Positions 5,427-40,000 of a stretch of DNA of 64,000 nt are shown piece by piece (within the stretch, counting starts at the first letter, position 1; each line of letters opens with the position of its first letter). Location: positions 314,650,001 through 314,714,000 of the forward strand of contig OZ024741.1 in assembly GCA_964016885.1 (NCBI GenBank), read 5' to 3'. Source of the stretch: Eledone cirrhosa. Its lineage: Eukaryota. A program made the position numbers and the translations under genes. Below the pieces are notes generated by a model. That model was not told where the DNA came from, ran no database searches, and was given only the letters and a program-made list of their open reading frames with translations.

Positions 5427-5498
<72 letters not shown>

Positions 5499-6324
5499 GC
5501 CGGAGTATTGCTAAAACGCTTTCTCCGATATTGTATTTATTATTATTATATATATATATATATATAAATATATATATACATATATGTATATATATATATA
5601 TATATGGAGGAGATTATAGTTCACTTGAAGCATTATCTAATGAGGTATAAACGTTTGTATATGTATAATAAAGCCAAAACAATACAGGTATGGACATAGA
5701 ATAAAGAATGCAAATGCAAAAGATATTGTTGACAATTAGTCTTTTACCTTAGATTTATTTAAATGTCCTTAATTTTTGAGATAATATCTCTTCTTCAGAG
5801 GGAAGTAAATCTGTTAAACCAGTGTTCTAAATAGCTTGCGAAGTCATGCTGACAGGAAATGGTATAGAGTATCTGTTCTATCTCTAATGTCAAAGAGTTA
5901 AGATTAGGTGGATAAAGAGTAGTCTCCCTTTAAAAGTTTTTTTTTATATGCATGCCTGTTTAAGTGTCTGGGAGAATGCATGAAGGTGTAAGTATGTGAG
6001 TGTGTGAGTGTGAGAAGATATGTCTATACGTAAATGTGGGGGATAGATGTTATCTCGTGTTAGAACTGGTTTTGTGCGTGTATGTGTGAGAGAGAATAAG
6101 TGGAGGTGTAAGTGTGTGTGTGTGTGTGTGCGTGTGTGTGTGTGGGGTGTGTGTAAATATGGGGCTAGATGCTCTATCTAATGTATTTTGTGGCGTGATA
6201 TTGTTAGACTTAAGTTGAAATTTCAATACCTGTATATATAAATGAACATCAAGGAACAACATTTTAATTTATATGAGGAAACTGGAATTTGGTAGCGTAC
6301 AGTCTGTAGTTTAAATTCAAATAC

Positions 6325-6945
<621 letters not shown>

Positions 6946-7324
6946 TATATATATATATATAGTGATGGTGTGGTAAGATACCAAGTGGTGTTCAGTTCAA
7001 GCTGTCGATGTGGGTGGAGCTCAAACGTCGTACCCCTAACACTTTTCCTATATATATAAACGGAAAAAATGAAACGAAATTTTATTTCCCACTCTTAGTA
7101 CGGCTGTTACTTAAATATAAGTATGTACACGTACATACATATATGTATACAGACGTACAGTAGTATTATATATATATATATATACATACATGCACATATA
7201 TATGTACATATGGATTCACCGAACATTTATTATAATGCTCGGTGTGTTTGTAGACAAACATCCCGTATTAAGTCGTAGTGTCCAGCAACCATCGTTGCTC
7301 GTTTGTTCAACACTGACAAAGGAA

Positions 7325-7365
7325 CGCTGTACTAGTTTCAAGCTTATTAGCTATCGTCAGCAACG
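7325..7365 (-). ncRNA. Type I hammerhead ribozyme (copy 1)
   Basis: Minus strand: CGUUG CUGACGA U-AGCU-aaua-AGCU-U GAAA CUAG UA/CAGCG; stem I extends GGAA/UUCC across a bulge. Confidence 0.85.
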
Positions 7366-7740
7366 TATACCTTCCTGCCAGATTGTTGAACGTATATACT
7401 TACCTTATGCATATTAACGGCTGAGTAGCCCAATTTGCATATCGAGTGGGTTAATCGGCCGGGTGCACCGGAAACGATGAACGGAAAAAATGAAACGAAA
7501 TTTCATTTCCCACTCTTAGTACGGCTGTTACTTAAATATAAGTATGTACATGTACATACATATATGTATACAGACGTACAGTAGTATGTATATATATATA
7601 CATACATGCACACATATATGTACGTATGGATTCACCGAACATTTATTATAATGCTCGGTGTGTTTGTAAACAAACATCCCGAATTAAGCCGTAGTGTCCT
7701 GCAACCAATGTTGCTCGTTTGTTCAACACTGACAAAGGAA

Positions 7741-7781
7741 CGCTGTACTAGTTTCAAGCTTATTAGCTATCGTCAGCAACG
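7741..7781 (-). ncRNA. Type I hammerhead ribozyme (copy 2)
   Basis: Identical motif 416 nt downstream of copy 1. Confidence 0.85.
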
Positions 7782-7866
7782 TATACCTTCCTGCCAGATT
7801 GTGTAACGTATATACTTACCTTATGCATATTAACGGCTGAGTACCCCAATTTGCATATCGAGTGGG

Positions 7867-7966
<100 letters not shown>

Positions 7967-7973
7967 CCATATA

Positions 7974-8006
<33 letters not shown>

Positions 8007-8023
8007 GAAAAAGTTCAAACCCC

Positions 8024-8087
8024 CGACGGCAGAGCTCAAGCCGTTTCGATGGCTATTTCCGTCGAAACGGCTTGAGCTCTGCCGTCG
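8024..8087. repeat. Short fold-back palindrome containing an HHR 3' half
   Basis: CGACGGCAGAGCTCAAGCCGTTTCGA...TCGAAACGGCTTGAGCTCTGCCGTCG; each arm reads GAAA-CGGC...GCCG-UC. A related single arm is at 52077-52110. Confidence 0.8.
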
Positions 8088-8644
8088 AGGTAATGAACAT
8101 TTTCATATTACCCATGTAAATAAGCTCTGTAGCCTACATAGAGCACTTTTTTTTCTGTACCTTTCCGACGGAATTATTACATTTATAGAGCTCCAACCGG
8201 GAATGATCGAAGCATATTCTATATTACATATATAATTGGCACCTTCCAGCAGGATAAGTTGAGCACTATACAGTTTCAGGATATTAACCAACATACACCA
8301 CGGACGTTTATGAATTGGATTATTCTATTAAAAATATACCTACTCCTTCCAACACAAGCTACACATCTTATCGATAAAATTGAACAAGTCATTAAAAGAA
8401 TAAGATGGAAAGCCATGATTTACGATGTGCTGATTCCAATGACTACTTTGACATTAAATCCCGCAAATACCCACCTAGAGTTAAAGACATGGTCAATTTC
8501 GAAATAGACCTAGTTAATTTAATTAGTGAAATTAAATAGCAAATAATTTTCAATCAAAACTCTCTAACGATATTTCTAATTTTAAACACTCTACAAACGT
8601 TTCGTTTTTTCTGATAAAACTAAAACCTCTTTGAAGTAAATAAT

Positions 8645-11136: not shown

Positions 11137-11395
11137 GTGTGTGTGGGTATATATATACGTATATATATGTGTTTGTGTATAGATATGTGTGTGTGTGTTT
11201 GTATATGTTTATTATATTTATATGGTTATTTGTATGTGGTTACGTATATGTGTGTGTATGTATATATATATACATGCACACAGTAGTATGTATATATATA
11301 TACATGCAGTATATATATACATACAGTATATATATATATACATGCACACAGTAGTATGTATATATATATATATATATGCACACATATATATATGT

Positions 11396-11830
11396 ACGTA
11401 TGGATTCACCAAACATTTATTATAATGCTCGGTGTGTTTGTAAACAAACATCCCGAATTAAGACGTACAGTGTCTAGCAACCATCGTTGCTCATTTGTTC
11501 AACCCTGACAAAGGAACGTTGTACTAGTTTCAAGCTTATTAGCTATCGTCAGCAACGTATACCTTCCTGCCAGAAGATTGAACGTCTGAAAGTATATACT
11601 TTCCTTATGCGTATTAACGGCTGAGCAGCCAAATTTGCATATCGAGTGAGTTAATTGGCCGATAAAACGAAAACGATAAACGGAAAAAATGAAACGATAT
11701 TTCATTTCTCACTATTAGTACGGCTGTTACTTAAATATAAGTATGTATACGTACATACATATATGTATACAGACGTACAGTAGTATGTATATATATATAT
11801 ACATACATGCACATATACATATATGTACTT
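11396..11830 (-). mobile_element. Circularly permuted monomer of the ~416-nt HHR repeat (HHR at 11517-11557)
   Basis: Same unit as 7058-7866 but starting at a different phase; HHR stem I is fully Watson-Crick (CGUUG/CAACG); inserted in TA/TG microsatellite. Confidence 0.8.
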
Positions 11831-11833
11831 ATG

Positions 11834-11879
<46 letters not shown>

Positions 11880-15488: not shown

Positions 15489-15840
15489 ATTGGCAGTATC
15501 GGTAGAGGGTCGGACGCCATGCTTTACAGCATAGTTACGTCCCTTTACCATCTGAGTTCAAATCCCGCCGAGGTTGACTTTGCCTTTCATCCTTACGGGA
15601 TCGATAAAATAAAGTACCAGTAATGCACTGGTAATTGCTGGCCTTGTGCCTAAAGTAGAAACAATTATTTGTTTTTTTTGCCATGCTTTCCAGCATAGTT
15701 ACGTCCCTTTACGATCTGAGTTCAAATCCCGCCGAGGTTAATTTTGCCTTTCATCCTTACGGGGTCGATAAAATAAAGTACCAGTAATGCAGTGGGTAAT
15801 TGCTGGCCTTGTGCCAAAAGTAGAAACAATTATTTGTTTT
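15489..15840 (+). mobile_element. Two tandem tRNA-derived SINE copies
   Basis: 15489-15678 and 5'-truncated 15680-15840; same family as 8645-8830. Confidence 0.9.
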
Positions 15841-16093
15841 TTTTTGTTTGTTTGTTTTTTATTAAATATTGTCTTTTTAATACGTTCAGCAAGAGAAATG
15901 TTTATACATATATTAATTTCTCTCTGGCAGATTTCGTCGAGGGAAATTTTCAATTGTTTATACTTTTGATTAATATCATTATCGATAGTATTTTCCACAA
16001 CAGTCGAGGTAGACTCGGAAGGTACACGTGGTGACAACTTTCTTAGATTATCATTAATATTTCTTCAATTATTATTATTATCGATAGTGTTAT

Positions 16094-20515: not shown

Positions 20516-20520
<5 letters not shown>

Positions 20521-20740
20521 TAAACGGAATAGAAAATGCTGACAAATTGTTCACAGTTGAAAAATGGTTTAATTAGGAATAAAAGAGTATTAGTGATTGT
20601 ATGGGTTAGTATTCAGTTGTGGTTTAAAGTTTTTAAGTTTTTACCGGTTGCGCATTTCTAAATGCTTTTCAAAAATAATTTTGAGATAGAGTGTCCGTGC
20701 TGTTTGCTCTGATTTTGAGATAGAGTGTCCGTGCTGTTTG

Positions 20741-21369: not shown

Positions 21370-21441
<72 letters not shown>

Positions 21442-21784
21442 GTATAAGGGTGCACTGTTTGATAACCACCAGAGTCATAAACGAAGATCGTTGAGATTTA
21501 CCCGCCCTTACGTCTGTTGGAAATCGCCATATGGCCCTTCCTCATCAGCCTCCATTCATAGCTGAAGACTTTCAATTGTTTATTAATATAATACACCAAA
21601 CCAGAGGTCACCCATTGGGTGACAATCACTTTGAAAGTTGTTTTTTTTAAAATCATGTTCACTTAAAAATAATTTTTAGATGATTAAAATATACGCAGAC
21701 ATGTATATAATGTGAAATGAAACTGGAAGGCCCATATATATATATACATGTGTGTATGTGTGTATATAAATGTGTGTGTGTAAT

Positions 21785-21881
<97 letters not shown>

Positions 21882-21979
21882 GAGAGGGGGGGGGGTATAT
21901 ATGTGGGTGTCCGTGATCTATATACACTGGTCATAGATATACACACATATATATATACACAACAACGCCACCAGCTCTA

Positions 21980-22018
<39 letters not shown>

Positions 22019-22161
22019 GCTCCCTCTCTCTCCCTCTCTCTATGTCCCTCTTTCAATCTATTCTCTTACAATCACTATCTCTTTCTCTCTATCTTTCACT
22101 CTCTTTTGTGTGCGTGTGTGTACATATGATGTTTAATATAGAATTCTTATATATATTTCAG

Positions 22162-22293
22162 AATGCCCAGCAGGAAAGTTTGGTGTTGCTTGTAATGGGA
22201 CATGCAATTGCCTCAACAATAGAAACTGTGACAAGCGAAATGGATCATGTTCAGATGGATGTTCTGAGGATTTTATTGGTTTCAATTGCGAAG
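22162..22293 (+). CDS. EGF repeat exon 4
   Basis: atttcag|...|gtatat; 132 nt; CPAGKFGVACNGTCNCLNNRNCDKRNGSCSDGCSEDFIGFNCE. Confidence 0.9.
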
Positions 22294-22472
22294 GTATATC
22301 ATAAACATGTTACCTAATTACTATAATTACTATAAACACACACACATATATATGTGTGTGTGTGTGTGTGTTTGTGTGTGTGGGTGCGTGGGGGGTGCGG
22401 GTGTGTATGCGCATGTGTTTGTGTGTGTGTCTAAATTTGATGTTTAATATAGAAAGCGTATATATATTTCAG

Positions 22473-22607
22473 AATGCCAAATAGGAAAGTTTGGTGTTAA
22501 TTGTACTGAGAAATGCCATTGTATCCACGACTTTCAATGTGACAAGCGAACTGGAAGATGTTCAGATGGATGTTCTGCAGGTTATATTGGTGAAAATTGC
22601 CAAGAAG
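22473..22607 (+). CDS. EGF repeat exon 5
   Basis: atttcag|...|gtatat; 135 nt; CQIGKFGVNCTEKCHCIHDFQCDKRTGRCSDGCSAGYIGENCQE. Confidence 0.9.
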
Positions 22608-22817
22608 GTATATCTTAAAGTTGTTACGTATTTACTACACACACACCCTCACACACACACACACACAAACACACACGCACACACACACACGCACGCACAC
22701 ACTCACACACACACATGTATATATATATATATGTTTGCGTGTGTATGTGTGTGTGTTTGTGTGTGTGTGAATATGTTTGTGTGTGTATGGAAATATGATG
22801 TTTAATATAGAAATAGC

Positions 22818-22910
22818 TTCTACGGGACTAGAATGGTTTCATCCAAAGAAATCATCAGGAAACGACTCCTGATGATTACGTTTGAATGAAATAATTCTAA
22901 CAGTTCTAGA
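22818..22910. repeat. Degenerate head-to-head double-HHR palindrome (family of 52291-52413)
   Basis: TAGAATGGTTTCATCCAAAGAAATCATCAGGA...TCCTGATGATTACGTTTGAATGAAATAATTCTA. Confidence 0.75.
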
Positions 22911-23033
22911 TGTATATATATATGTATATATATTTATTTGTATATATATATATATATATTATATATAAATATATAAATATTAAAACAATGAAATTAAACA
23001 AAAAACGGTTAATTCATAGTAAAACTCATTATT

Positions 23034-23282
23034 TTACGATCGTTTCTGGGGTTTAGTTCTCCGTATGTCGATTCTATTATTGATCTATGTAAATGATTTT
23101 ACAAAATATCATAGTAAGAGAATATAGATAAGTCTTCACTACCCAAAAATATTTTCTGAAGACGGCGGGTAGTGAAGACGTATGTATATTTTCTTAGTAT
23201 GATATTTTGTAATATATTTTACATAGATCAATAATAGAATGGACATATGGGGAACTAGAACTACACCCCAGAAACAACTCGT
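23034..23282. repeat. Fold-back repeat derived from a long-stem-II HHR
   Basis: Arms ~23042-23144 and ~23167-23275; CTGAAGA core at 23156 and GAAAC at 23271; related to 60924-61068. Confidence 0.7.
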
Positions 23283-23638
23283 ATTTTTCAGTCATATTCA
23301 CTTGAAGATGTTTTTTTTTTTTTTAATAATTAAAATATCGTCTGTACTTAAAGTATAAACAACTTGTATTTTTGAAAACATATTCACTGACAAATCACTG
23401 AGAAAAAATTTGTATGTATTTTTTAAATCCTATTCACTTAAAAATAGTTTTTGAATAATGAAAATATTGTCTATGTCCTGTTTACGCCAAACATATTTTA
23501 TTGCGTTTGTAATCCCTTTTCACGGTAATTTTAATTCCTGAGTATTTTCCCATTATGCATCATTTTGACTATTTATGAATGTTTGTAAGGTTATGTTACT
23601 TTCGGAGTATTTTTCCATTATGCAACGGTTTGGCTATT

Positions 23639-24467
23639 TATGAAGATACCCGGAAAAACCACATATCTCGGGAACGCATGCTTCAAATTACTCCAAACTT
23701 GATATTTTTCATTTGTATTCCTATTTCAGGGTGAGATTCCTTTCAAATTATTCTCCCATTATGCGCTTTTTTGGCTGTATTACATAACAGACAATGAAAC
23801 AAGCAATCACAGACTTTTAGTATTATATTGATAGACTAGAACCCACGTGACTCGTTGTGTCACGTTCACTTAAAAATGATTTTTAAATAATTAAAATATA
23901 CACAGACATGTATATAATGTGAAATGAAACTGGAACGCCCATATAGAAACGTGTGTGTATGTATATATATATAGATGGGTGTGTTTGTATACGTATATGT
24001 CTATATATGTATGAGTGTGCGTATATATATATGTGGATGTCTGATCTATATGCACTTGTTATAGACACACACACATATACACATACATAGACACACACAT
24101 ATATATATGTATACGCACAAAGTCACACATATATATATATACATATACAACTACAACACCACCAGCTCTCTTCCATTCTCCTTTTCTGTCTTCTCTTCCT
24201 CTCTCTATGTCTCTCTGTCAATCTACTCCGTCACAGCCACTATCTCTTTCTCTCTATCTTTCTCACTATTTGTTTATGAAGGTACCCAGAAAAACACCAT
24301 TTCTCGGGACCCCGTGGTCCGATTTATGCGAAACTTGATTTATTCCATGTGTATTGGCATTTCAGGGTCAACTTCCTTTCAAAGTATTTTCCCATTATGC
24401 GCCTTTTCGGCTGAATTACATTACAGACAAGCAAGCAAGCAATCATATACATTTAGTAATATATAGA
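23639..24467 (-). mobile_element. Non-autonomous Helitron pieces (two 5' segments and one 3' end)
   Basis: Homologous segments 23639-23835 and 24276-24467 begin TCTAT/TCTGTCTAT on minus; 3'-type terminus hairpin ACGTGAC..GTCACGT + 5 nt + CTAG|T at 23836-23865. Confidence 0.65.
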
Positions 24468-27205
24468 CAGATAAATTTCTTTATTAGCCACAAGGGCACA
24501 AAAGAAGGGGACAAATACAAATGGCGAGTTTACATACAGGTATATGAAAATAAAACTATTAATACAATAACAAATAACAATTGAAATCCCCAATAGGGGG
24601 GAGGTGTTACACAAGGGTTGTACACACCCTGAACAAATGTACAACCCTCATCTCCAGGAGCACCAAGAGTGAGTACTCCCTTCCTCTCTTCCTCTTTTTT
24701 CTCAACCTACAGGCTGATATAGAGAGAAGGCCCAACCACTCGGGCCATCTTTTCCACATTCACCCACCTTTTATAAAATTTGCTGGGGTACAGCACCTCT
24801 CTCTCCATCCTGATTCTTCTTCGAAAATGATATTTGAAAAAACGAATCGGTTGACATCAGCCCTTTTATCCTCGTCCACCATATCTGACCTCAGCCCTTT
24901 TAACCTCATCCACCATATAACCTCTTTCACCATAGCCATAATACATAGGAAAACCGCCTCTCCCTGGTTTTTTCAAGCGGTTTGATCATGACAATGGACT
25001 CGGTGGTCCCACCCGCGACAATAGTCGTTCTACATAGCCCCACAGGTCGGTAACGCCCGGGCAGTGTACAAATGCGTGTGCGACGGTTTCCTCGTCGCGC
25101 AGGCATCTAGGACAGATCCTTTTCGAAGAGTCCCTACCCGGGCGCCCGTGTTTGTAGAGCTTGTCTCGAACTGGTAGAGCTCCTCGGTAGCACTGCCAGG
25201 GACTTTTGGAAGTTGTCCATTGGTGCCGGGCGGAAGGTCCTACCGAACAGACTGGCCATTTCGTCCTCCTCTACGCCTGGAGTTTCTCCGAGCGTGTCGT
25301 CGCACTTGCTGCGGACCAACCCTCTATAAAATGTCAAAGTGGAATCTCCACTGATCGCCGAGTCCGTTTGCCAAAGGATTGTGAGCGCCTGAGCACATTC
25401 GATGTGACAGTCTCCCATTTTCCTCGGTCTTTGCTTGATCCAGGTCTGCAGCTCGGTCAGCGAGACGAGTCGTGGGAAGGCTCGCCTCACGAACGGCACC
25501 CACACCGGTTTTCTGGTGAGGAATACGTGGAAGTGCCACAGCCTGAGCGCGTGTTTGCGCATCGTCAGGCACGGCATGCCCAGCTTGAAGGGTGTTGGCA
25601 ACAGATGAATCTTCTCACCAAAGGAGCGCGTTTCTTCCAAAGGAATTGACAGAGCGCGCGATCCATTTTGGTGGGCGTTTTGGCTGGCCAAGGCACGACG
25701 GTCAAGCGGTAGTAGATGACGGACGCCATAAAAGTGTTCGCCACCTCCGCTCGGCATTTCAAGGATAGTTTGCACTCGACCCACTTCTGGGTGAGCGCAA
25801 ACACCTTGGCCGTCACCTCGTTCCAGTTCTTCTTCACCTGGAGGTCAGGACCAAACCAGACCCCGAGCAGCTTTACCGGTCCTTCCGTCCAGCGCCCGAC
25901 GACGTCATCGGAAGGCATCGGTTTACCTCTCTACGTTCCGAGTTGCAAATCGACGGATTTGTCCCGGTTCAGCTTCGCTCCTGTGAACTGTTCGTATTCC
26001 TCCAGTAAGGTGCCGATCTCCCCGATTTGCGAGGTGCTCGACACCATTACCGTCATGTCGTCGGCGTAGGCCGACGCCACATTTCGCAGTTCCGGTTCCA
26101 AAGGGATGCCCTGCAATAGCTCCAACTTCTGCAGTAGTGGCTCGAGAGTCAGTACGTACAGAAGGGAGGAGAGAGGGCATCCCTGTCGGATGGATCGTAT
26201 GATATTGAACGGCTCCGAGAGGTAGCCGTTCACCTTGAACCTTGAGCAGATATTGCTGTTGTGCATTGCAGCAATCCAGCCCCTGGACACACGACTGAAG
26301 CCTGCAGCCTCGAGCACCGCATCCAGGTAACGATGGTCAACCCTATCCAAAGACTTAGACTGATCCAAGTTGATCAGGGCCCCACCGAAGCCGGGTTTAC
26401 ACCCTACCCTCTCTATGATGTATCGCATGAAGTGAAGGTTGTCGTGTATGGACCTGGTCGGGATTGCGCATGTCTGCGCTTCTCCCACTAGGTTTTCGAC
26501 GACGAGCGCCAGCCTCTTTGCCAACACCTTGGCCAAAATCTGTAACTCTGTGTTGAGCAGAGTTATCGGCCGGAAGTTGCCTATGTCATCCCCCTTGTTC
26601 TCGTCCTTCCTGACTAACGTGATTACGCCCCTGGTCAAGGAACTGGGAATTCTCCCGTTCTGCTGCCAGTTGCAGTAGACCGCTTCCAGAAGACCGGCGA
26701 ACAAGTACGGCATTGCTACGTAAAATTCGTAGGGTAGACCGTCGAGACCTGGAGATTTGCGTTTGCCGCATTGGCTCAGTGCATCCCCTTATCTCAGCGG
26801 CCGAAATCGGCCTTTCGCAGAACTTCGCCTCGCTGTCCGAGAGTCGCGGTAGGCCGTTGAGGTATGAACCGAAATCTATAGCCCCTCCCGGCGAGTTGCC
26901 CTGCCCGAACCGTTGAGGAAAGTGTCGCTGAAAGGCCGCGCACATTTGCTTCGGCTCACGTATCACGCGTCCGTCTTGGTCCTTGAAAGACAGAATCGTG
27001 GATTTGTTGCCATATTTTTCGCCTCCGTCACTCGGGCCCAGCTAACAGCTTTGGCTCCCTCTTCCCCAGAGCACGTATTTTGCTTCTGACAACGCAGCCT
27101 TCATGCTTTGCGTCGAAGAACTGGTCCAAGGCCGTTCTCGTCGTTAGCATGCTGGCTTCTCTGCCACTCCTAAGTGCCTCTTCTACTTTATCTACCAGTT
27201 CTTTT
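24468..27205 (-). mobile_element. 5'-truncated Tx1/L1-clade LINE (frameshifted RT)
   Basis: NFRPITLLNTE, IRQGCPLS, AYADD, KLLGVWF, CPRCLRDEETVAHAFVHC; AATAAA near the 3' end. Confidence 0.92.
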
Positions 27206-27422
27206 CGGTCGTATTTCTATGTAACACTATCTAACACTAATATATAGACAGTTAGATAGATAAACATACCGCGTATCGCTAGATATCCAACATACAGATA
27301 AGTATATGTATAAAGCTATGTTAGAGACAGCATTTTAATTTTCTAAGCGGGTAGCGCAGCATACTACCCTTCCGTATTTATAATTATATATAACTCATAT
27401 AAAAGTATAAATACTATTATTA

Positions 27423-27481
<59 letters not shown>

Positions 27482-27960
27482 TAAACGGAATAGAAAATGC
27501 TGACAAATTGTTCACAGTTGAAAAATGGTTTAATTAGGAATAAAAGAGTATTAGTGATTGTATGGGTTAGTATTCAGTTGTGGTTTTAAGTTTTTTAAGT
27601 TTTTATCGGTTGCGCATTTCTAAATGCTTTTCAAAAATAATTTTGAGATAGAGTGTCCGTGCTGTTTTCTCTGATCTGATTAGTTTTGGGAATTCTACCT
27701 GTTTTTATGTTAAAAAAGTGGCTCCAGTGTTATTTTTGTGTTGCAAAAATGCTTGTGGTCAAAACAATTTTGTTTGGTCGGTAGAGGTCATGTGAATGTA
27801 AAAAGTTGATTTTGCGCTAAGACTGTTTTTATGTTAAAATGTTAAGAAAGTGGCTCCAGCAAAAATTATTGGTCAAAACAATTTTGATTGGTCGGTAGAG
27901 GTCATGTGGATAAAAAATTGGTTTTGCGCCAAGATTGAGAAATGACTCTTTCACAACAAA

Positions 27961-28045
<85 letters not shown>

Positions 28046-28118
28046 AGTAGTAGTAGTAAGGTGTTCGATGCTGCGACAATGGCCAGCAGCGATGTGTGTC
28101 AAATGGCTATTAAGATAA

Positions 28119-28149
<31 letters not shown>

Positions 28150-28311
28150 TGTGTGTATGTGTGTGTGTGTGTGGGTGTGTGTAGCAGAGTCATTCGAAGG
28201 TCAAAAGATATTTTTCAGCTTTTGTCTTATACGGAGAAGTGCGTGTGTGTGTGTGTGTGTCTGTGTATACGTCTCTTTGTATGTTGATGTACGCGTGTGT
28301 ATGTGTTTGTG

Positions 28312-28345
<34 letters not shown>

Positions 28346-28495
28346 GGTGGACCAGTATTTTTTCCCCCTGGTAAAATGGTGTACATTATTCGATTTTTTC
28401 AGTAAAATCTTTTCTCTTAATAGAACATCAAAAATCTTAACAATAAAAGGTGTGAAATGATATTCACTATATATATATACACACACACATACATT

Positions 28496-28532
<37 letters not shown>

Positions 28533-28673
28533 TACATACATATATATGCACATATATTTTTTGTATTGCACCATAGAGCATGTGTGTTTACGTGTGTCAT
28601 TGTGTTTATATGTGGGTAGAGATGTGTGCTGATGTAGGTATGTATGTTGACGTGTGTATGTTGTGGGTTCGTC

Positions 28674-29119
28674 TTAGGGAGAAGTGTTTAGACGGGGTCC
28701 GTATTTGTTAATGAAGTAAGATTCCTTGCTGATGCGCTGGGTGTGGGTGGCATTATCTTTAAATTTGTAGAGGGGAAAGATTCTGAAGTTGGGATGATTT
28801 TGGGCGGCACAGGTATCAATGTGTTCACTCAGTGGTATTTTCCTGTATTCCCGTATTTTAATTTGGGATCTATGGACAGTCATGCGTTGGCGGAGGCTGT
28901 TTTTGGTCTGGCCTATGTATTGTTCTCGACAACCTGAACAAGTTAATACATATATTAGATTTTCCGATGCACATGTGAAATTGTGTTTTACTATAAAACG
29001 TTGTCCATCTTTGAAATAGAATTCCGAACCCTCTATTAGGTTGATGCAAATGCCACAGTTGGGTCTATCGCATTTTTTTACTGTGGGTTTCGTTGTTGTG
29101 GTTGGCAGTACTTTGGCAT
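28674..29119 (-). mobile_element. GIY-YIG endonuclease fragment of a non-Naiad (Neptune-like) PLE
   Basis: Open frame KCDRPNCGIC...FTCASENLIYVLTCSGCREQYIGQT...RMTVHRSQI...LSEHI...KESYFINKYGPRLN. Confidence 0.85.
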
Positions 29120-29728
29120 GTTGTTCATTTGTTCAACATTGATAAAGGAACGTTGTACTAGTTTCAAGCTTATTAGCTATCGTCAGCAACGTATACCTTC
29201 CTGCCAGATTATTGAACGTCTGAAAGTATATACTTTCCTTATGCATATTAACGGCTGAGCAGCCTAATTTGCATATCGAGTGAGTTAATCGGCCGGGCGC
29301 ACCGAAAACGATAAATGGAAAAAATGAAACGAAATTTCATTTCTCACTCTTAGTACCGCTGTTACTTAAATATAAGTATGTATACGTACATACATATATG
29401 TATACAGACGTACAGTAGTATGTATATATATATACATGCATGCACATATATATATATATATATATATATGTACGTATGGAATCACCGAACATTTATTACA
29501 ATGCTCGGTGTGTTTGTAAACAAACATACCGAATTAAGCCGTACAGTGTCTAGCAACCATCGTTGCTCATTTGTTCAACACTGAAAAGGAACGCTTTACA
29601 AACACACCGAGCATTGTAATAAATGTTCGGTGAATCCATACGTCCATATATATATATGTGTGCATGTATGTATATATTTATACATACTACTGTACGTCTG
29701 TATACATATATGTATGTACGTATACATA

Positions 29729-29732
<4 letters not shown>
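29117..29732 (-). mobile_element. Longer-than-unit copy of the HHR repeat (period 442 nt) plus inverted tail; HHR at 29151-29191
   Basis: GTTCAACA recurs at 29131 and 29573; inverted segment 29595-29732. Confidence 0.82.
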
Positions 29733-29818
<86 letters not shown>

Positions 29819-29839
29819 TTATATATATATATATATGTA

Positions 29840-29904
<65 letters not shown>

Positions 29905-29905
<1 letters not shown>

Positions 29906-30082
29906 TGTTTCTACTTTTTGGCACAAGACCAGCAATTACCCAGTGCAATACTGGTACTTTATTTTATCGACCCCGTAAGGATGAAAGGCAAAGTTAACCT
30001 CAGCGGGATTTGAACTCAGAATGGAAAGAGCCGTAACTCTATGCGTCAACGCAGGGCGTCCGACCCTCTACTGATACTGCCA
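29905..30082 (-). mobile_element. tRNA-derived SINE with (TTA)n tail
   Basis: Same family as 8645-8830; adjoins an (AAT)n tract. Confidence 0.9.
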
Positions 30083-30083
30083 A

Positions 30084-33000
30084 ATAAAAGAGAAAACGCA
30101 GGTAAGCTTTATAAAAAAAAGGATTTTATCCAGGTATTTACGACCGTTTCATTGGTAAGCGCAACCTCATATCGCTATACTGCTAATACCAGCCAATCGA
30201 TAATAACTGTTATTCACCACCAAATTTTCAAAATAATGATTAAGTTACTTGTAAAAGGTTCTTAATATATAAAAGAAAACATTTTTTTGGAACGTATTAA
30301 CTAGTATAGAGAGAGAGGAAGGGGGAGAAGTGTTAGGAAGTAGAGGGACAAACGGTGATGGAGAGAGGGGTAAAGATGGAAGGATTCCTCGATAAGTTTT
30401 GATTTGTAGACTTGATGTCGTCAATTTACAGTGTAGGGAGTTAAAGAGAATTGAATTGTTCATCGTGGGAGGGAGAGAGAGAGGGGGAGGAGAGATAGAG
30501 AGATAAATATATATGAAAAAGGGGAAGAGAAAATGAAGAAAAGAAAAGAAAAACAAAAAAAAGAAGGAGAAGAAAAGAAGAAAACGAAAAAAGAAAAATG
30601 GAATGAAGGAGGAGAGAGGGACATAAGTACTGGTTACTGTGGGTAATTAAAGTGGTTCGATTCAATAAGAGGGTAGAAAGTCTTAGTATATGCAGTTTGT
30701 CAGATGGTAGTAGGAGGTTAAGGGTTCGATTTGCACTTGTAGTGCGAACATTTTTCTTTAAGTCTATGGTTGCAATAAATTGATCTTTCGATTTTATTGT
30801 TGAGTAACTTATTCTTCGAACTCAAAATGTGGAACAGTTTAAGGTCACATAACCGACAGTATCTCATACCACTCCGATATGCCGGCGCGTTCGATAATTT
30901 CTTCCACTTCAGGGTGTATTGATGGTTACTTTCCCTCAATTGCCAGGTCTTGTTCGCAAGGGTAGTTACATATTGATGCTGGGAATGTTTCATTGCGTCA
31001 CGATGTGTATACCAACGAGCTTTAAATATATTCCCAGTCGGTCCGATGTAATACCACTTCTGCTTGTCTGATTCGACCGTGCATTGGTAAACCAGGTTAG
31101 ACTGCATACATTCAGTATGCAATGGACAGGTATCAGGTAGGTGGCAATTACAAGTTTTGTCATGGGCAACTTTGACATTATTGGTTGGCTGCGATGCCTG
31201 TACAAGTGCGTTACGTTTTGTTTGTCTTCTAGTGGGTGGTTGTGCATTAGATATTCTGTTGTGTTCGATGGTAATTGTATTGTTATTGTTATAAATTTGT
31301 GTTCTGGTGTTGTTACGTATCTTTTTAGCGTTAAGTATCTTAACGTGTGCCTCTATGCTTGGTGCAGTGGAGTAAGAGAGTCTGATAGATTTAGTGTTAA
31401 GGATTTTACTGTATCTATGTGAATCTGGAAAGTGCTTATTTATTCTTCTAAAGAAGGTAGGTTGGTACCAATAGAGGTGTTAAATATAGGGTTATACCAA
31501 ATATATTTTCTATTGCGTGACCTGTTTGATTTTGATGTTGTACTTCTATGTTCAGTATAATTGGTAGTTCTATGCGTAAATGCGTGTGTGCGTGTGTTTC
31601 TGGAGTTTATGTTATACCTATTCGTGTGTGCTTTGCGGAGGCTTTCATCTCTATATTCTACTCTATCTATGTGGCCTGCCTTATCTAGTGCAGTATTGTA
31701 GTACTCCGCGTGTTCCTCGAAGATTTGTCGGTTAGACGCGAGGCGGGAGATCCTAAGGGATAAGCTGCGTGGAACGGATTTAATTATGGAGAGTAGGTGG
31801 TTCGAATTACACTTGATGTATGCTAAGTTTTCATTATTCTTGTGAAAAGGTATTATAAGTCCCGTATTTAGCTTAAGCGCCGCGTCTAGAAAGTTAACTA
31901 TTTTAGTGCTATATTCATACGTTATGCTAAGGCCTAGTTTGCCAATAGACTTTCTAATATTCTTGCGCAGTCTTACTATGCTCTGGTCATTTAGGTTCTT
32001 AACTAGAAGAAGGGCGTCGGCTCTGTAGATTCCACCCTGAAGGTCACTAAATTCCTTATGTAAACTATGGGCTATGTAAATACCTACTATATCCGTGACC
32101 TGAGCCGAGACATTAGCCCCCATCGTGATGTCAAAGTTATCTAATCTATCCGTACGTTCCCAATAGGCGTTTTCAAATTTAATTATTGTTTTCCTAGCAG
32201 CTAATATAATTTTTATCTCGTCGACTGTCAGGTCATAATTGGCTTTGGCGAATTCTAAGGCTTTATTCAAGGTATTGGGTGATATAGAGGATTAATAGTC
32301 GTTAATGTCAAATTGCATAAACTTAGATGCTTTTTTGTTAGCTATACTATTAAACCATTTAATTGTTTCGGTAGTGTTACCCATAGTTTAATCACCAGTT
32401 TATTCTTCATTTGTGCTATTACTCTGTCTAATATATGTTTATTAATTTTCCCAATGTCTGATTTGGGCGGGCATATAAGTATAATTGTGAGGTTATAATC
32501 AAAATTTACCTTATGGTCCTTGAGATTTAATGTGGGGGTACATGGCCTAAGTCGCTCAGCTCTATCCTCTATTCATAGGTGTTTGACTATATTGTGTGCC
32601 TCGTTGTTGATGTTTATCAGTGCCGTCTCGTTAGTTTTTCTACATTTCCTATGTAATTACTTCCATATGAAGCTATTATATGTATTAATATCCATCGTAT
32701 ACACATTTGAGGTTTTGTCCGCTTTGACAATAATTCCATTGGTAGTTCGCAGTTTTCTCTCCCTCCCACTATAAACAATTTAATTCTCGTTAACTCCCTA
32801 CACTGTAAATTGACGACATCAAGTCTACGAGGAATCATTCCATCTTTATCCCTCCCTCCATCACCGTTGGTCCCTCTACTTCCTCACTCTTCTCCCCCTT
32901 CCTCTCTCTCTATACTAGGAAATACGATTTTTTTTAAATGTTTTTTCTATATATTAAGAACCTTTTAGAAGTAACTTATTCATTATTTTGAAAATTTGGA

Positions 33001-33450
33001 GGTGAATAACAGTTATTATCGATTGGCTGCTATTTGCAGTATAGCGATATAAGGTTGCGCTTTCCAATGAAACGGTCGTAAATACATGGATACAATCCTT
33101 TTTTTGTAATGCTTACCTGTGTCTTCTCTTTTATTGTTTATACTCCAAGATTGAACGGGATTTACTAACCAGATTCTTGCAAACTTGTGGAGTTACCCCT
33201 AACCGTACGTTGGAAACCCTCCAAGAAACTGGCTATCTGAAACACGAACTGGATTTCAATAAGCAAATTTCCGCTTTCCTAACTATATATATATTGATTT
33301 TTCCCTGGATTTCACTAAATTCTGTTGGATGAATCTATATCCTGATTCTTTTTGAGTTGAGTTTGAATTATTTTTCCCACATCTTACGTTAACTATTTTT
33401 CACTTTTTGACGCTATAGTCACTTATATATTATGGAATACTGTTGGCTTT
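30084..33450 (-). mobile_element. Degenerate Naiad-type PLE with inverted pseudo-LTRs
   Basis: LKDHK, FDITMG, GGIYRAD, NFLDA, WYNP, YIGPT, CRLC; inverted repeat ~30084-30460 / ~32774-33135. Confidence 0.88.
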
Positions 33451-34064
33451 TTGCTACAATATTTTCCATACCTTTCATTTATATATATATATATATGAAA
33501 AACATGGGGAGAATAATACTGCATGGTTGCACATGGATTACATATTATAAAATTAGTCCCTCATCAGTGATTTGCCAACGATCATTGGTATTTCATCGCA
33601 TTAAAAATCATAAACCTCAGGTTGGTGCGAGCAATAACTAAAATAAGCTATTGGGACAAGTGAAACGCGTAAAGCGAGTGAGACAAGTAAACAACATAGG
33701 AGGAAAAGCTAACCGAAGATGGGAAGAAAAACAAGCAACATGGTTATCCGATCAGCATAAGCTGGGTGAATTTCATGAGCGCTCAGGAAACAGACCTTTC
33801 GCTGTGAAGGGGATGTGAGAAAGAAAGAATCCCTCTCCTAGCGAACGGGAGGAAGTGAGAAGGGGAGAAACAGAGAGTGAGGGAGTGGAAGTGCGTGGAG
33901 GAGATCAGTCGAGAAAAAGTGTTAACTGACAGAGGGGACGAAAGAAGGTAAGAGAAATAGAGAGAATAGGGGAGCAGTAAGAGAGAAAGAGAGAAACAGA
34001 TAATCGCAGTTTAGGTAAATATAGGAAAAACATGGGGAGAAGAATACTGCATGGTTGCACATGG

Positions 34065-34122
<58 letters not shown>

Positions 34123-34143
34123 TACATACATTTATGAATATAA

Positions 34144-34235
34144 CATATATGCCGGCGTATAAGTAGATCCGGCGCATAGGTCGACCTCTGAAACTCTGTG
34201 GTCTGATTTTGGATTAGGCCTATATAGGCCGGATA
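34144..34235 (+). mobile_element. Possible Tc2/pogo-type DNA transposon terminus
   Basis: CATATATGCCGGCGTATAAGTAGATCCGGCGCATAGGTCGACC resembles reiterated Tc2-type TIR motifs (recognised from memory); the partner end was not found. Confidence 0.4.
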
Positions 34236-34727
34236 AAACAAACCCCCAAAAGTAATGCATTACCATCTCCCCAGCCGTAGATAAGCTTGCCGTTGATTAA
34301 CTGCACAAAATATAAAATAGGGAAATAAACACTAAATAGTTGTAAAATAAAAATTCTTGTGAAGAAAATACAATTTGTAAAATTTATTTTACAGTTAACA
34401 AAATGATTTAACTGAACTGTTTTATTAGTAAACATCAGGTTACCACACCGTTACTCGATACGCGGTAATTTTAAAAACCTAAAATTTCCTTATCCTCAGT
34501 TTATTAACATTACATGGCGATACAACTTTACTTTCGGCAATTTTTGTTTCGCGGGGAAATTTCCATAGGTTTTCCGATAGTTTAGATAATTCTAAGACAC
34601 ATCTTCTAACACTTCAGTCGTAAGTGAGTTCTAACTGACTGAGGAAACCAGCCTAGCGTAAACTTAACGAACCTATGGTAACCTAACCTATAAGCTATGG
34701 AAAGTCATTGATATTATTATAATCTCT

Positions 34728-34775
34728 AAACAGACTTAAACAGACTTAAACAGACTTAAACAGACTTAAACAGAA
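34728..34775. repeat. 10-bp tandem repeat (AAACAGACTT)x4.6
   Basis: Directly visible. Confidence 0.95.
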
Positions 34776-34914
34776 ATAATTGTGATGGGGTGCTAGAGTA
34801 AGTGGTTAACAACACGTGTTAGACAGCCAGTTTCACTGTTTAACCGTCAGTGGTAATGGTTCCTACTTCATATTTGGCGGACAAGTCGACCCTGGTTTTG
34901 GATAGATATGTTAG

Positions 34915-34954
<40 letters not shown>

Positions 34955-34960
<6 letters not shown>

Positions 34961-35076
34961 AGGTGTCGGAACGTGACGGCTGATCTCACCTTATCTTAAC
35001 AGCTAGTTATATACTTAGCTGCCACCACGTTGAGAAACACGTTGAGATCAGCCGTCACATTCCGACACCTTATTAT
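34955..35076. repeat. Fold-back insertion with ~35-bp inverted ends in (TA)n
   Basis: ATAATAAGGTGTCGGAACGTGACGGCTGATCTCA...TGAGATCAGCCGTCACATTCCGACACCTTATTAT; another left end starts at 35246. Confidence 0.85.
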
Positions 35077-35079
35077 ATA

Positions 35080-35251
<172 letters not shown>

Positions 35252-35499
35252 GTCGGAACGTGACGGCTGACCTCTCCTTATCTTAACAGCTCGTTAGCTA
35301 GCTCCAGGCTCTCGAACTAATTGTTCAAACCGTAATAGCTTAGTCCTCGGATACTGCTTCATTATAATAGAGTCATACTCTACTATCCCAAGTATCGTGT
35401 ACTCTGTAGAGTAATGGTCTAACGAGTTTCAATATGGTTCTATCCTGATATATATATATATGTTTTGAAATATATATTTGGTCGGGTGTCAAGTGTAAT

Positions 35500-37315
35500 G
35501 AAAGTCGGGTGCTGCACCATATTGCGAATAGTGGTTTTTAGTCACAGCGGACTAATGCAACGTTTGTTAATACTTCGAATAAACCTTATCGTAAAGCAGA
35601 TCCATGTTATTCTTCACTCATTTATTATTAATACTCCAGGAACCACTTACCTAGGAACTGTCTTGAATCAGTCACCTGAACACCGCAACTAAGTAAACTT
35701 CTTATTGAGTGAAACAAAGCCCAACGTTAAAACTATTCTTGATACAGAGTACTCATAACTTCTAGTTGGATTTCCTTAAATGATACCTCGTTAACTTATA
35801 TAATTAGCTCCCACCAAGTTGAAGAAAAACTTTAAAGCCAGGCATTAACATGGAAAAGCACAACATAGACATGTCACTAAAATTTTACCTATACCTACAA
35901 ACAGGGATTATACACTCGGCATGATACAGCGCACCAGTGATTTTAACCATCGAATCCGATGGAAAGCATATCATTACGTCAATGGACACACAATTGATAC
36001 TGAGGAAAACACTAAAGAGCAATACGGATTTAAATCTTGCAAAAACCCACCAAGTAACACCCAGCTTGACACATTTGAACTCGACCTCATGAACATGATA
36101 AGTGGAATTAAGTTTTAAAGAGACACACTGGTAACAACAACCTGCCGAACAACATCAATGCACTTTTGAAAAAACTACGCAATACTGACGGAATTATAGT
36201 TAAAGGAGACAAAAGATCGAACGTATACACCATGAGCCTAGACACCTACAACAGCTTTATACGCCTTGAACTGCACAAAAAATACAGGAAAACCTTGAAG
36301 CTACAATTGTGGACATCAACAACGAATCACACATAATATCAACGAATCACACATAATATACCACAGTATAATAAGACGCTACTAAACAGCAAATTCAAGC
36401 GGACAATTGTCTATAGGCACAAAGCCGCTAGTACATTTTCGAATAACAAACCGAGATAAACAAATTCTGTCCAGCAATCTCATTTTCCATGTAAACAAAA
36501 CAACTCCGTGGATTTATAGTGTCTGCAAAATTGGCGCCAATGAACCACTTTAACACCTCCTTAAACAAATAAAGTGCAGTCACGTAAGAGTGCAAGCTTT
36601 CTTTAACACTTCAAAAGTTACTTCACCAACCAATAGAAAGCAAGAATAACCGGCACTTCCGAGGTTATTATGTATTTTTTCTTTAAAGGTACATCCCTTC
36701 AAATCCCTTATCTCACATACAGCATCAATCACCCTTCATAGCCAACATCATCACCATCAATCTTCACCTCCCCATTAAGATTACACTTTTCAAAATTACC
36801 CATCTGTCATCATTATCTCTTTGTTTTATCTTTTTATTTCACCTTATCCAACTTTATTACACTGTCAGCATTATCCTTTCGTTTCATCTCATCCCATGTT
36901 ATTACACCGTCCAGTTACTTTGTACCCTCACTTCCCAACTTTACTTTCAACTCTACCGGTACTTTTTATTATTATTTTTTTAATATTGTTACAATCACTA
37001 TTATTTTTTTACTTTTTTATCATTTTTCTTATATTGTCTTTTCACACCACTTTTTTTCATCTTATTATTATTACTATGTGTTCATGGTTTTATACTAATA
37101 TCATCCTCTTCACTATACTTTCCTTTTTATTATTATTCATGTTATTTTTTATGTATCTATAAACACTCGTGCACTCGTGCACTAATACACACAATTGTCA
37201 ATCGGAGTGGTGCCGCGGCACACTGCGATTGGCGGTTTTTAGGCACACTGAAACATTTGTTAATACTTCGAATAAAACCCTATTGTACAGCCGATCCGTG
37301 TTATTCTTCACTCCT

Positions 37316-37320
<5 letters not shown>
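35500..37320 (+). mobile_element. Internally deleted Naiad-type PLE with terminal direct repeat
   Basis: N-terminus HRIRWKAYHY...YGFKS.KNPP...FELDL, KGDK, then jumps at ~36360 to a C-terminal-like LLNSKF..RHK; ~65-bp direct repeat at 35561-35626 / 37254-37319. Confidence 0.72.
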
Positions 37321-37368
<48 letters not shown>

Positions 37369-37661
37369 TATAAATTATGTCCTTAGAATCATTTGATAAG
37401 ATATATACTCAATTTCCTCTCCCAATTACATAATCAACAACACAACAAACCAATTAAACCAGGCTATAAGATTAAAAGGCACCTGTGAAGAAATAATAGA
37501 TAAATAAACAATAGCCATTTATTCGCGATCAACAGCCATAGAATATTTACCCATTATTTCAATAGCACGTGGAAATTGATTAAATATATCGTCAACCATA
37601 CACAATTAGGTATACAATTAAAGTTAGAAGAAAGAAATGCATATACACATACCAGGATTAC

Positions 37662-37735
37662 GTTTCTACCCTTAGGGTTTCATTCGCTTTCGGAAATATC
37701 CTATCAAGGATAAATTCTCGAGCTCATCAGGAAAC
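37662..37735 (-). ncRNA. Type I hammerhead motif
   Basis: GUUUC CUGAUGA GC...UAUCCU-ugau-AGGAUA...GC gaau GAAA CCC-uaa-GGG UA/GAAAC; perfect 5-bp stem I; 4 extra nt before GAAA. Confidence 0.7.
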
Positions 37736-38073
37736 AAACTCACTTGGACAAAGATTTTTCTTAAATGATCCCCGCCAGAAAGGAATTCAAAATGGCTAAG
37801 AACTGTGACGTGGCAGTGGTCAAATCAGAAAGAATGTAATTGGTGCCTTACGGCTAGTAGGCTGGTTGCTAGAAAGCGCAGCCTAATATTGCCCAAATTG
37901 CATCTCAACCTTATGGGAGATTATCAAATATAAGATGTACATATACACAAACTAGACATAGTTATAGATATGTGTTTGTCAACCATTCACGATGTGGCTC
38001 AATGATGAATTAATAAATTAAATAATCAGACCAATATACTATAAATTATGTCCTTATATATATATATATATAA

Positions 38074-38732
38074 ATGAATATATGAGAGGGATGAACACTG
38101 ATACAAGTATGCATGTGTTCGAATTGTAAATGACCAAGTTAGCTAGGTTGAAAAATACTAATTCAAAATAATATGTTTTGACTGTCTCGATTTAAAGTAA
38201 TAAATCAATAAAAATAACAAACGTATATTGGCAATGCCCGTGATACCCGGACAAATTCTAAATTTGTTTAGCAACAATTAATAAGTGAAAGACTATTTGG
38301 AGTTTATAACTCAATATATGATATTCTCGGCTCCATTCGTAGAGCTAATTTTAGTCCCATAAAACCGACTGCTATTTTTAGCGTCACGAGTATGAGATGA
38401 GTTAGGCGCTGTGACATGTGCGTTCAACAACACATATTTCTCAGTCGTATTAAGTATTTTGAAGTGAAAGGTACGAATTTCCTGGATACCCGCAGAAGAG
38501 CACAGGGATAGTGACTTTCATTTAATAATTGTTGCGAAACAAATTTAGAATTTGTCCGGATATCACGGCCATTGCCAGTATTGTTTTGTTATTTTTATTG
38601 ATTTATTACTTTAAATCGAGACAGGCAAACCATATTATTTTAAATTAGTATTTTTCAACCTAACTAACTTGGTCATTTACAATTCGAACACATGTATACT
38701 TGTATCGGTGTTCATCCCTCTCATATATTCAA
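38074..38732. mobile_element. MITE/fold-back element with ~210-bp inverted arms
   Basis: 38074-38290 is the imperfect reverse complement of 38514-38732. Confidence 0.8.
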
Positions 38733-38902
38733 TTGTATTACACGGCACGGAAATATTCCCTTCTTTGAGCTATTTAATTGTAAAAGATTATTTCGAGTTT
38801 ATAACTCAATATATGATATATATATATGTTATTTTATAATATATATATATATTATAAAATAACAGGAGGCTGGACTGGTGTAAATCCTTGAAAGGTTTAT
38901 TA

Positions 38903-38958
38903 TACTATGATCATTTCAATGACCGGGTTCAGTATGAATTCGGTGACATTATCAGGTA
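38903..38958 (-). ncRNA. Type I hammerhead motif, G8A core (probably inactive)
   Basis: UAC CUGAUAA ...ACCG..UUCA-uac-UGAA..CGGU... GAAA UGAUCA UA/GUA; palindromic stem III. Confidence 0.6.
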
Positions 38959-40000
38959 ATTCAAAATATAATGAAGGAATATAACAGATAAAATCCATGG
39001 TGCTGAAAATCATGGTGGTCAAAATCAGAAACAGGAGGGCGACCGACAATTTAGCAGCTTCTTCCTCTGCCAGTCGCCCTCAAGTGTTGATTATTAGGTC
39101 TACATATGACCATCCGGTGTGGAGGCGCAAGTTTTAATGTACTACTACAATCCCGTCAGATAGAAATGTCAGCCCTGAGGTCACGCGTAAATGAGGCTGG
39201 TCAGGCATGCTCAAAATTGCCGCGAAGAATGTTTTGTCCAAGAACAAATATCTTCAACAGACACACACATAGGAATTAAAAAGGGAGAGAGCGTGTGTGA
39301 ATGTGAGAGATAGAGAGTGTGTCGGAGAACGAAAACGAGAGAGAGATTGACAGAGAGAGTGAGAAAGAGAGTGTGCGTAAGTGATATAGATATTACATCA
39401 AGGTTGACCACACGGAATGATCAGATCTATCCAGTGGTGAACCAACAAACCCAAATAAATAAATATATATATATATATATAATGGATCGAGAGATTCCTA
39501 ATCTTCATTAAGACATCTCTCTAGGAGAAGGTCACTCCGATATAAACCCTGCGAATGATGTAGACCAGTTCTACTTTTAGGTCAAATGCATTCGAAGTTC
39601 AGAGAGTGGGATTGGCTCCGTGGAAAGCGTTTCATCGCTTAAAATATGTTTAAGCACTTGATAAGTGACATTTTTTGCGCTGCATGGTATTGCTGGCGAT
39701 AGACAAGTCCATACCGTGGCTAAAAATCCATGTCCGTGATGCACATGCTTAAGTATCAAGCGATGGCATTATTCAAAATCGAGTTGCAGCCATCATATAT
39801 ATATTAATAAAAGATCGGATGCCATATTCAGTTGATTTAGGTTTATTAAAATCCGTTATAGATATATCGCTGAGGATTATTTTTTATTAATATATAATGC
39901 TCCTGCTTGCACCATTTATACAGGTCGTTGAGCGGTTCTTTTTCTTCTAGTTCACAAACAATAGACCATAATGTGCGGTTAAACCCATACTCTAATTATA

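Follow-up and report, generated by a model that had tools for sequence, protein, structure and literature searches.

Metazoan non-LTR retrozymes are described as low-GC, non-coding tandem repeats with a unit of 150-450 bp and one type I hammerhead, and the family studied here resembles them in these features, in its size of about 10,000 units and in sharing its genome with PLEs (PMC7229834, PMC7761336). What moves animal retrozymes has so far been argued from shared ribozymes, co-occurrence and homology to the pseudo-LTRs (pLTRs) of PLEs. The relevant section of a retrozyme review states that no motif in these repeats identifies the mobilising element (PMC7761336), and a circular template has been proposed for them (PMC7229834). 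That PLEs move retrozymes is an already published hypothesis, supported in 2026 by pLTR homology: Li, Clavereau and Pollet (bioRxiv 10.64898/2026.07.22.740005) regard retrozymes as non-autonomous PLE partners, as we do here, and their case rests on co-occurrence and pLTR homology in vertebrates, whereas ours rests on insertion anatomy and pLTR homology was not found. The terms “tail”, “initiation”, “template” and “target site” are absent from the main text of that preprint. PLE insertions themselves are characterized by a tail at one end and an inverted, 5'-truncated copy (PMC8557442, PMC3846280). In experiments with a purified Anolis PLE, both strands were extended, two internal start sites defined the tail, and ribozyme cleavage was not needed (PMC11167929).

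We analyzed a stretch of 64,000 nucleotides of Eledone cirrhosa DNA (the window) that contains a fusion of a PLE and a retrozyme; its 20-nt junction pattern occurs a single time in the 3.0-Gb assembly. The PLE part is a 1.64-kb 3' piece on the minus strand (27479-29121), and both outer ends of the fused locus adjoin (TA)n. The (TA)n target at the PLE 3' end (27424-27478) forms the left edge of a 6.6-kb insertion stack in one ancestral microsatellite. Next to it lie the 3' UTR/pseudo-LTR of the family, which we call PLE1 (27479-28673, minus strand), with a tail-less (“core”) end, and the C-terminal part of the PLE ORF (28674-29121, minus strand), which encodes a CX4CxxC linker and a GIY-YIG domain with CCHH residues and is 5'-truncated at 29121. 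The original prediction implied that the PLE part starts at 28674, which is the start of the coding part; the element itself starts at 27479. Its description of an uninterrupted GIY-YIG frame was accurate: the minus-strand frame at 28674-29132 is open over 152 aa from stop to stop and matches the Pfam GIY-YIG domain (E 2.5e-7).

PLE1 is a young family. Among the 40 of 1,254 candidates that were scored, at least 17 other copies show 100% identity across 520 nt, and its 30-nt end motif has 8,254 exact matches in the assembly. Other copies (e.g., L089) extend into a 784-aa RT-EN frame with RVT_1 and GIY-YIG domains and 1,133 homologues. The CX4CxxC linker and CCHH residues, read from the PLE1 translation, are those expected of EN+ PLEs, and the CX2-5CxxC linker before the C-terminal EN, a mark of Neptune that is shared with Nematis, is present. 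So are a pLTR partial tandem, an inverted 5'-truncated copy and a tail at one end; the upstream pLTR is reached by read-through in six copies (L085, L088, L089, L242, L243, and L248). Judged by its sequence, PLE1 is an EN+ PLE of the Neptune/Nematis type, the two clades not being separated here. Like the described members of these clades, it combines a C-terminal GIY-YIG with CCHH, the CX2-5CxxC linker and the pLTR partial tandem with an inverted 5'-truncated copy, a 40-nt tail at one end, a microsatellite target and microhomology at the 5' junction (PMC8557442, PMC3846280). It differs from them in lacking a canonical hammerhead in its pLTR (none was found by a motif scan for canonical cores), a feature common in EN+ PLEs though not universal, and in an extra frame of 455 aa. 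This frame is conserved in full-length PLE1 (L085, L088, and L089), where it occupies 4774-6138 of the oriented copies in the PLE sense; the 784-aa frame follows at 6072-8423 and overlaps it by 67 nt in a different frame. As descriptions of the family give it a single ORF, the 455-aa frame may reflect a programmed frameshift, an intron or an additional ORF. A further fragment of the PLE1 3' end, 196 nt long and 98% identical, lies at 20519-20713 of the window.

The retrozyme part begins with a direct arm on the minus strand (29120-29595) that comprises 36 nt plus one unit and lacks its normal start, namely the initial ~250 nt counted from the tail site introduced below. The repeat period is 441-442 at the locus and 416-442 in the family, with one hammerhead motif in each unit, in agreement with the predicted array of more than one unit with period 442. 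The type I hammerhead motif (29150-29192, predicted cut 29156|29155) is on the minus strand, like the GIY-YIG frame, again as originally proposed. Further along the direct arm is an internal copy of the 56-nt “tail” (29311-29367, minus strand), bounded by the tail site at 29311 and the core site at 29367. An inverted arm of 144 nt then follows on the plus strand (29595-29738); it matches 29367-29520 and begins at the core site, where it adjoins the (TA)n/(TAA)n of the right end (29739-29905). The direct and inverted arms carry one common rare allele (29499/29616). When an identical donor of the retrozyme arm was sought, the best other copies reached 98% among those scored, which were 40 of 1,263 and 40 of 967 candidates. 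The 36 nt beside the PLE junction (29120-29155) contain a cluster of four C-to-T differences from the common family letters; the first three occur together only at this locus and the first two together in 3 places, and the cluster possibly arose by deamination of an exposed single strand. Two more retrozyme copies are found in the window, at 7056-7868 and 11312-11841, the former having a tail-site start on (TA)n and about 1.9 units.

We take the motif at 29150-29192 to be a hammerhead, going by the general consensus and numbering as well as its fold. It has a 6-bp stem I, a 4-bp stem II flanked by U.U, a short helix III with a palindromic loop, and a GUA triplet. Stem II of canonical hammerheads is closed by a purine-pyrimidine pair. 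Here, the hammerhead core and stems are present, but U.U stands beside the core at stem II, and Rfam detects no hammerhead at this motif at either its gathering or E-value thresholds. The core is intact in most family copies. Core columns differ by 2.9% and other columns by 2.2%; because the core is no more conserved than the rest, there is no sign of selection on it. In free folding against shuffles, the 101-nt ribozyme region did no better (z -0.48), the 51-nt motif gave z -0.77, and the whole monomer folds stably (z -7.9), in part owing to an AT microsatellite. No recurrent ORF fusion point that would link the retrozyme to a coding sequence was found in 109 + 45 = 154 other loci. By its sequence, the repeat, with its short tandem non-coding unit and a predicted type I hammerhead in each, fits the definition of a non-LTR retrozyme.

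Two junctions delimit the direct arm. At the PLE-retrozyme junction (29117-29121), the original prediction saw CATG microhomology. PLE copies match up to 29121 and most retrozyme copies read CATCG, and therefore the exact overlap is only GT (29120-29121), or 5/6 if the adjacent CAT is included with a 1-nt bulge; CATGTTG was read at this position in 1 of 115 contexts, namely this locus. The head-to-head junction between the arms (29594-29599) spans the second predicted cut (29597|29596) and shows T-x-TAC homology. The direct arm does stop 1 nt short of this cut and then inverts, as had been noted; since the TAC after the cut fits both arms, the position of the junction is no finer than 29594-29599. 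No TSD is readable, the flanks being (TA)n. Among the pieces listed from 4 of 24 sequencing runs, no read or contig spans the PLE-retrozyme junction, which proves nothing either way.

Evidence on how the retrozyme moves comes from the family as a whole. We assembled an unselected sample from the first 100 motif matches on contig C1, which gave 60 loci and 101 arm starts; a long array (L112-L120) and overlapping duplicates were left out, and two insertions are counted twice (L222/L223 and within L202). Of the 101 retrozyme arms, 86 begin at either of two fixed sites, which are separated by 56 nt, and most of these starts adjoin (TA)n. Tail-site starts account for 44 arms (unit positions 155-166, with 39 at 156, corresponding to window 29311) and core-site starts for 42 (unit positions 207-223, with 33 at 212, corresponding to window 29367); the other 15 arms have lost the normal start and abut varied DNA. 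A head-to-head inverted pair was present in 31 of the 60 loci. When both ends of a pair were canonical, one was a tail and the other a core end in 26 of 27 unselected and 38 of 39 motif-selected pairs (64/66), and none of the 66 was core/core; 26 further pairs have a non-canonical end. PLE1, with its 40-nt tail, behaves likewise: tail and core ends were complementary in all 14 pairs from 40 copies and all 6 from 30 unselected ends (20/20). In a second, hammerhead-bearing PLE family with a tail of about 59 nt, two pairs were complementary and one was core/core (L086, beside a PLE1 end).

These data argue that the retrozyme family carries the PLE “tail” insertion fingerprint, and we put the probability of PLE-type integration of this retrozyme at roughly 90%. 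Unlike metazoan non-LTR retrozymes as described, the copies are scattered as partial multimers, have (TA)n as their target, start at two fixed sites and carry arms arranged head to head. With PAc Poseidon in vitro they share two internal RT starts that define a tail, the use of both strands and an AT-rich target (PMC11167929). PAc showed no strand difference in start site and no target homology; here, in contrast, pairs almost always have one tail and one core end, and 3-5 nt of A/T at each site are homologous to (TA)n. We did not find this combination of tail, paired ends and target for a retrozyme family in the literature searched, mostly without subscription papers, repeat-database entries and the supplements of the 2026 preprint. 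A family of about 10,000 units that bears a fingerprint described as PLE-specific, with exact predicted start sites, provides evidence on the machinery that moves retrozymes. The presence of young, open-frame PLE families in the same genome, together with the published in vitro PLE assay, makes the question open to direct experiment, and the rule of one tail and one core end constrains how PLE inverted repeats form.

The original prediction attributed the end of the direct arm to an RT that ran off a self-cleaved 5' end, a claim to be judged by whether ends are enriched at the predicted cut genome-wide. No enrichment was found. The pre-cut motif occurs 9,968 times, and 36 occurrences diverge in the three letters that follow the cut slot. 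Inspecting 30 of these revealed 20 true ends (two of them the arms of one locus), 3 forward jumps and 7 indels or substitutions, which amounts to about 24 ends in 9,968 units where 32 are expected. At a control position 45 nt further, the only one counted genome-wide, 20 of 8,047 diverge, of which 16 proved to be true ends, with 26 expected; the ratio of cut to control is 1.2 (p 0.63). Expected numbers derive from a rate of one end per 263 nt in 75 unselected arms; a first estimate of 1 per 460 nt was dropped, as it was biased through selection on the motif. For ends 4-3 nt before the cut, there were 53 raw matches, and 21 of 30 inspected were true ends, 12 of them in the subfamily covered by the denominator, yielding about 21 observed and 21 expected; this is 1.6 times the level of the single control (p 0.19), and there may thus be a small excess. 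Even with all raw matches counted, the share of passages that terminate at the cut is no higher than about 0.9%. The unselected arms agree: 1 of 101 ends falls within 5 nt of the cut, the ends being spread over the unit, and 0 of 101 starts fall within 10 nt of it. Furthermore, about 91 cases of cDNAs reading through a cut site were counted in the 60 loci, which does not support the in vivo cleavage that had been suggested. If ends were placed uniformly, about 1.4% would fall in a 6-nt window, and the family has some 10,000 units; the junction at the cut in this locus is likely no more than a chance coincidence. The locus itself is outside the set of 36, because the letters after its cut slot match the consensus. 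It is ordinary in this genome, and it does not demonstrate in vivo cleavage.

The proposed snap-back fares no better. The inverted arm at our locus ends on TA, at the fixed start site of the family, and the contents of sister arms often differ: in 7 of 33 pairs, each arm has at least 20 nt absent from its sister, so that neither can be a snap-back copy of the other. Sister arms are nonetheless related, having 27 rare alleles in common in 9,886 columns (2.73 per kb), 14 times the frequency between loci (350 in 1.8 million columns, 0.19 per kb). Their divergence in unselected loci is about that of tandem units (3.4% vs 3.6%); an unmatched comparison, dominated by long arrays, gave medians of 4.2% for inverted arms and 1.6% for tandem units. 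The simplest reading, which we consider likely, is that two cDNAs are primed on one RNA from both target strands. A PLE-type RT/endonuclease would nick both (TA)n strands, and a single uncleaved retrozyme RNA, probably circular, would serve to prime two cDNAs at the two fixed internal sites, 56 nt from each other. Both cDNAs would read through ribozyme sites and stop at random, and the joining of the two 3' ends head to head would create the inverted pair.

L1 twin priming is a comparable process, in which both target strands prime on one RNA and an inversion results, with a variable second site and non-overlapping arms. The retrozyme pairs likewise imply two strands and one RNA, and are unlike L1 in that both sites are fixed and the arms overlap. 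We marginally favor a circular template. Read-through and the similarity of tandem units fit the circular-template proposal for retrozymes (PMC7229834); an uncleaved multimer may be the template instead, as read-through fits it too. Taken together, we tentatively suggest, at somewhat less than even odds, that PLE enzymes copy retrozyme circles by twin internal priming, with one fixed site per nicked (TA)n strand, past the ribozyme junction. If true, internal initiation would explain the target-primed reverse transcription of an RNA that has no 3' end, PLE inverted repeats would generally originate from strict tail/core pairing and not from self-priming, and the fused locus might be a captured hand-over between a PLE RNA and a retrozyme circle.

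How did the PLE and the retrozyme become joined? The two retrozyme arms belong to one insertion, because the right arm shares a rare allele with the direct arm. Given the core start of the right arm, the left arm of that insertion would normally begin at the tail site. The outer ends of the fused locus are core/core, the PLE left end and the retrozyme right end both being core, and do not obey the tail/core rule for single insertions. In paralogous segments on the same contig, 27238-27478 is joined almost directly to ~34090, which indicates that 6.6 kb (27424-34067) are stacked in one (TA)n; in one paralog, this TA is occupied by a different PLE. The core/core ends and this stack make two insertions likelier than one template switch. 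We therefore lean towards two separate insertions in a (TA)n hot spot, joined by short microhomology with the loss of about 250 nt. In the second step, the young PLE would have inserted at the flanking (TA)n beside the retrozyme pair, and its truncated 5' end would have been joined inside the left arm, either at the time of integration or through a later deletion, with loss of the tail-site start. Other hetero-fusions exist: at L018 (2232-2560), PLE1 is joined to the second PLE family, also core/core, and at L232/L268 (L268 reverse, ~1040-1875), an old third PLE family is joined to the retrozyme with the same anatomy. Private changes (7-8 in 1,268 for the PLE and 3-8 in 339-375 for the retrozyme) lean to an older retrozyme, with p between 0.01 and 0.71 depending on the counting rule. 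Against two insertions, neither an empty nor a retrozyme-only allele of the exact site was seen, and the paralogs predate the whole stack; moreover, the two parts have the same orientation, as a template switch predicts, and a core/core pair is also seen in L086.

The original prediction envisaged a single RT jumping from PLE RNA to retrozyme RNA. The same-strand fusion is real; the jump is the second-best history and in our view an unlikely one. A left cDNA made on PLE RNA would have switched at GT/CAT to a co-held retrozyme RNA and been joined to a second cDNA primed at the core site, all in one event. This would account for the common orientation, the direct fusion without filler and the (TA)n at both outer ends, and it agrees with the ages of the two parts, which are not clearly different, with direct jumps inside PLE1 (L012 and L020), with a weak 15/18-nt likeness near the two 3' ends, and with the reported ability of PLEs to move other sequence in trans (PMC3846280). 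It is opposed by the core/core ends, which occur in 0/66 retrozyme and 0/20 PLE1 pairs, by independent insertions stacked at this TA, and by fusions that are not specific to this family pair (L018 and L232); an event that draws on two different RNAs is not necessarily subject to the tail/core rule. Run-off from a self-cleaved 5' end followed by snap-back on the RT's own cDNA is improbable even here and largely refuted as a general mechanism. An arm that stops 1 nt short of the predicted cut, an inverted arm contained in the direct arm with a rare allele in common, the 1.6-fold ratio just before the cut, and the self-priming proposed for PLE inversions (PMC3846280) are consistent with it, and are outweighed by the lack of an excess of ends at the cut, the stop of the inverted arm at the fixed core start and the ambiguity of the junction over 6 nt. 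Both families have thousands of near-identical copies, and with no listed read or contig across it, the junction might be suspected to be an assembly artefact between two abundant repeats; the clean microhomology, the private changes found in the PLE as well as the retrozyme, and the recurrence of this anatomy at L018 and L232 render this very improbable. Less probable still is that the repeat is the pLTR of an autonomous PLE and the locus an internally deleted element. Many Xenopus retrozymes are homologous to PLE pLTRs (bioRxiv 10.64898/2026.07.22.740005), but full-length PLE1 has its own, different pLTR with no match to the repeat, the 109 + 45 other loci show no recurrent ORF fusion point, and arm ends are scattered. 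This reading is refuted for PLE1; a rare autonomous PLE with the repeat as its pLTR may exist elsewhere in the genome.

As for the mobilising partner, predicted to be a Neptune-like PLE, the family-wide evidence makes PLE-type machinery very likely and does not single out this PLE family. Counting junctions, as had been suggested, revealed no further fusion of the retrozyme with PLE1 in 39 other PLE1 copies or at 30 further PLE1 ends, and L232/L268 is a fusion of this kind that involves a different PLE family. A motif shared by the 3' ends of PLE1 and the retrozyme was rejected as proof of partnership, as 95 of 2,000 shuffles score equally and the comparison was post hoc. Tail length was also discarded: at 56 nt, the retrozyme is nearer the second PLE family (~59) than PLE1 (~40), which identifies nothing. 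The second PLE family is inserted in a young PLE1 3' UTR (L243, 1285-1420) and beside retrozyme ends (L136, L201, and L205), and for this reason it is both recent and a candidate partner.

The surroundings of the locus contain other repeats. The region from about 21400 to 40000 of the window is one segmental-duplication unit of 75-90% identity, with paralogs on contig C2 at 311.04, 311.18, 311.83 and 312.16 Mb that lack both a LINE-like RT piece (~24477-27237) and the 27424-34067 stack. Within the same (TA)n stack, 30220-32999 is a decayed element with inverted ends of 92-95%, and the minus-strand frames at 30718-31479 and 31440-32291 look PLE-like by eye, with no Pfam match. An abundant short interspersed repeat, often found after TA/TAA runs, is present at 29895-30083 and 15516-15844, with a 164-nt tandem at 15.5 kb. 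Other hammerhead-like motifs, belonging to several families, are located at 22858/22869, 37730, 42779/46111, 47107/51047, 52343/52360, 53069 and 60462. Some of these form pairs on opposite strands, separated by 3.3-3.9 kb, and may mark the limits of whole PLEs with inverted pLTRs.
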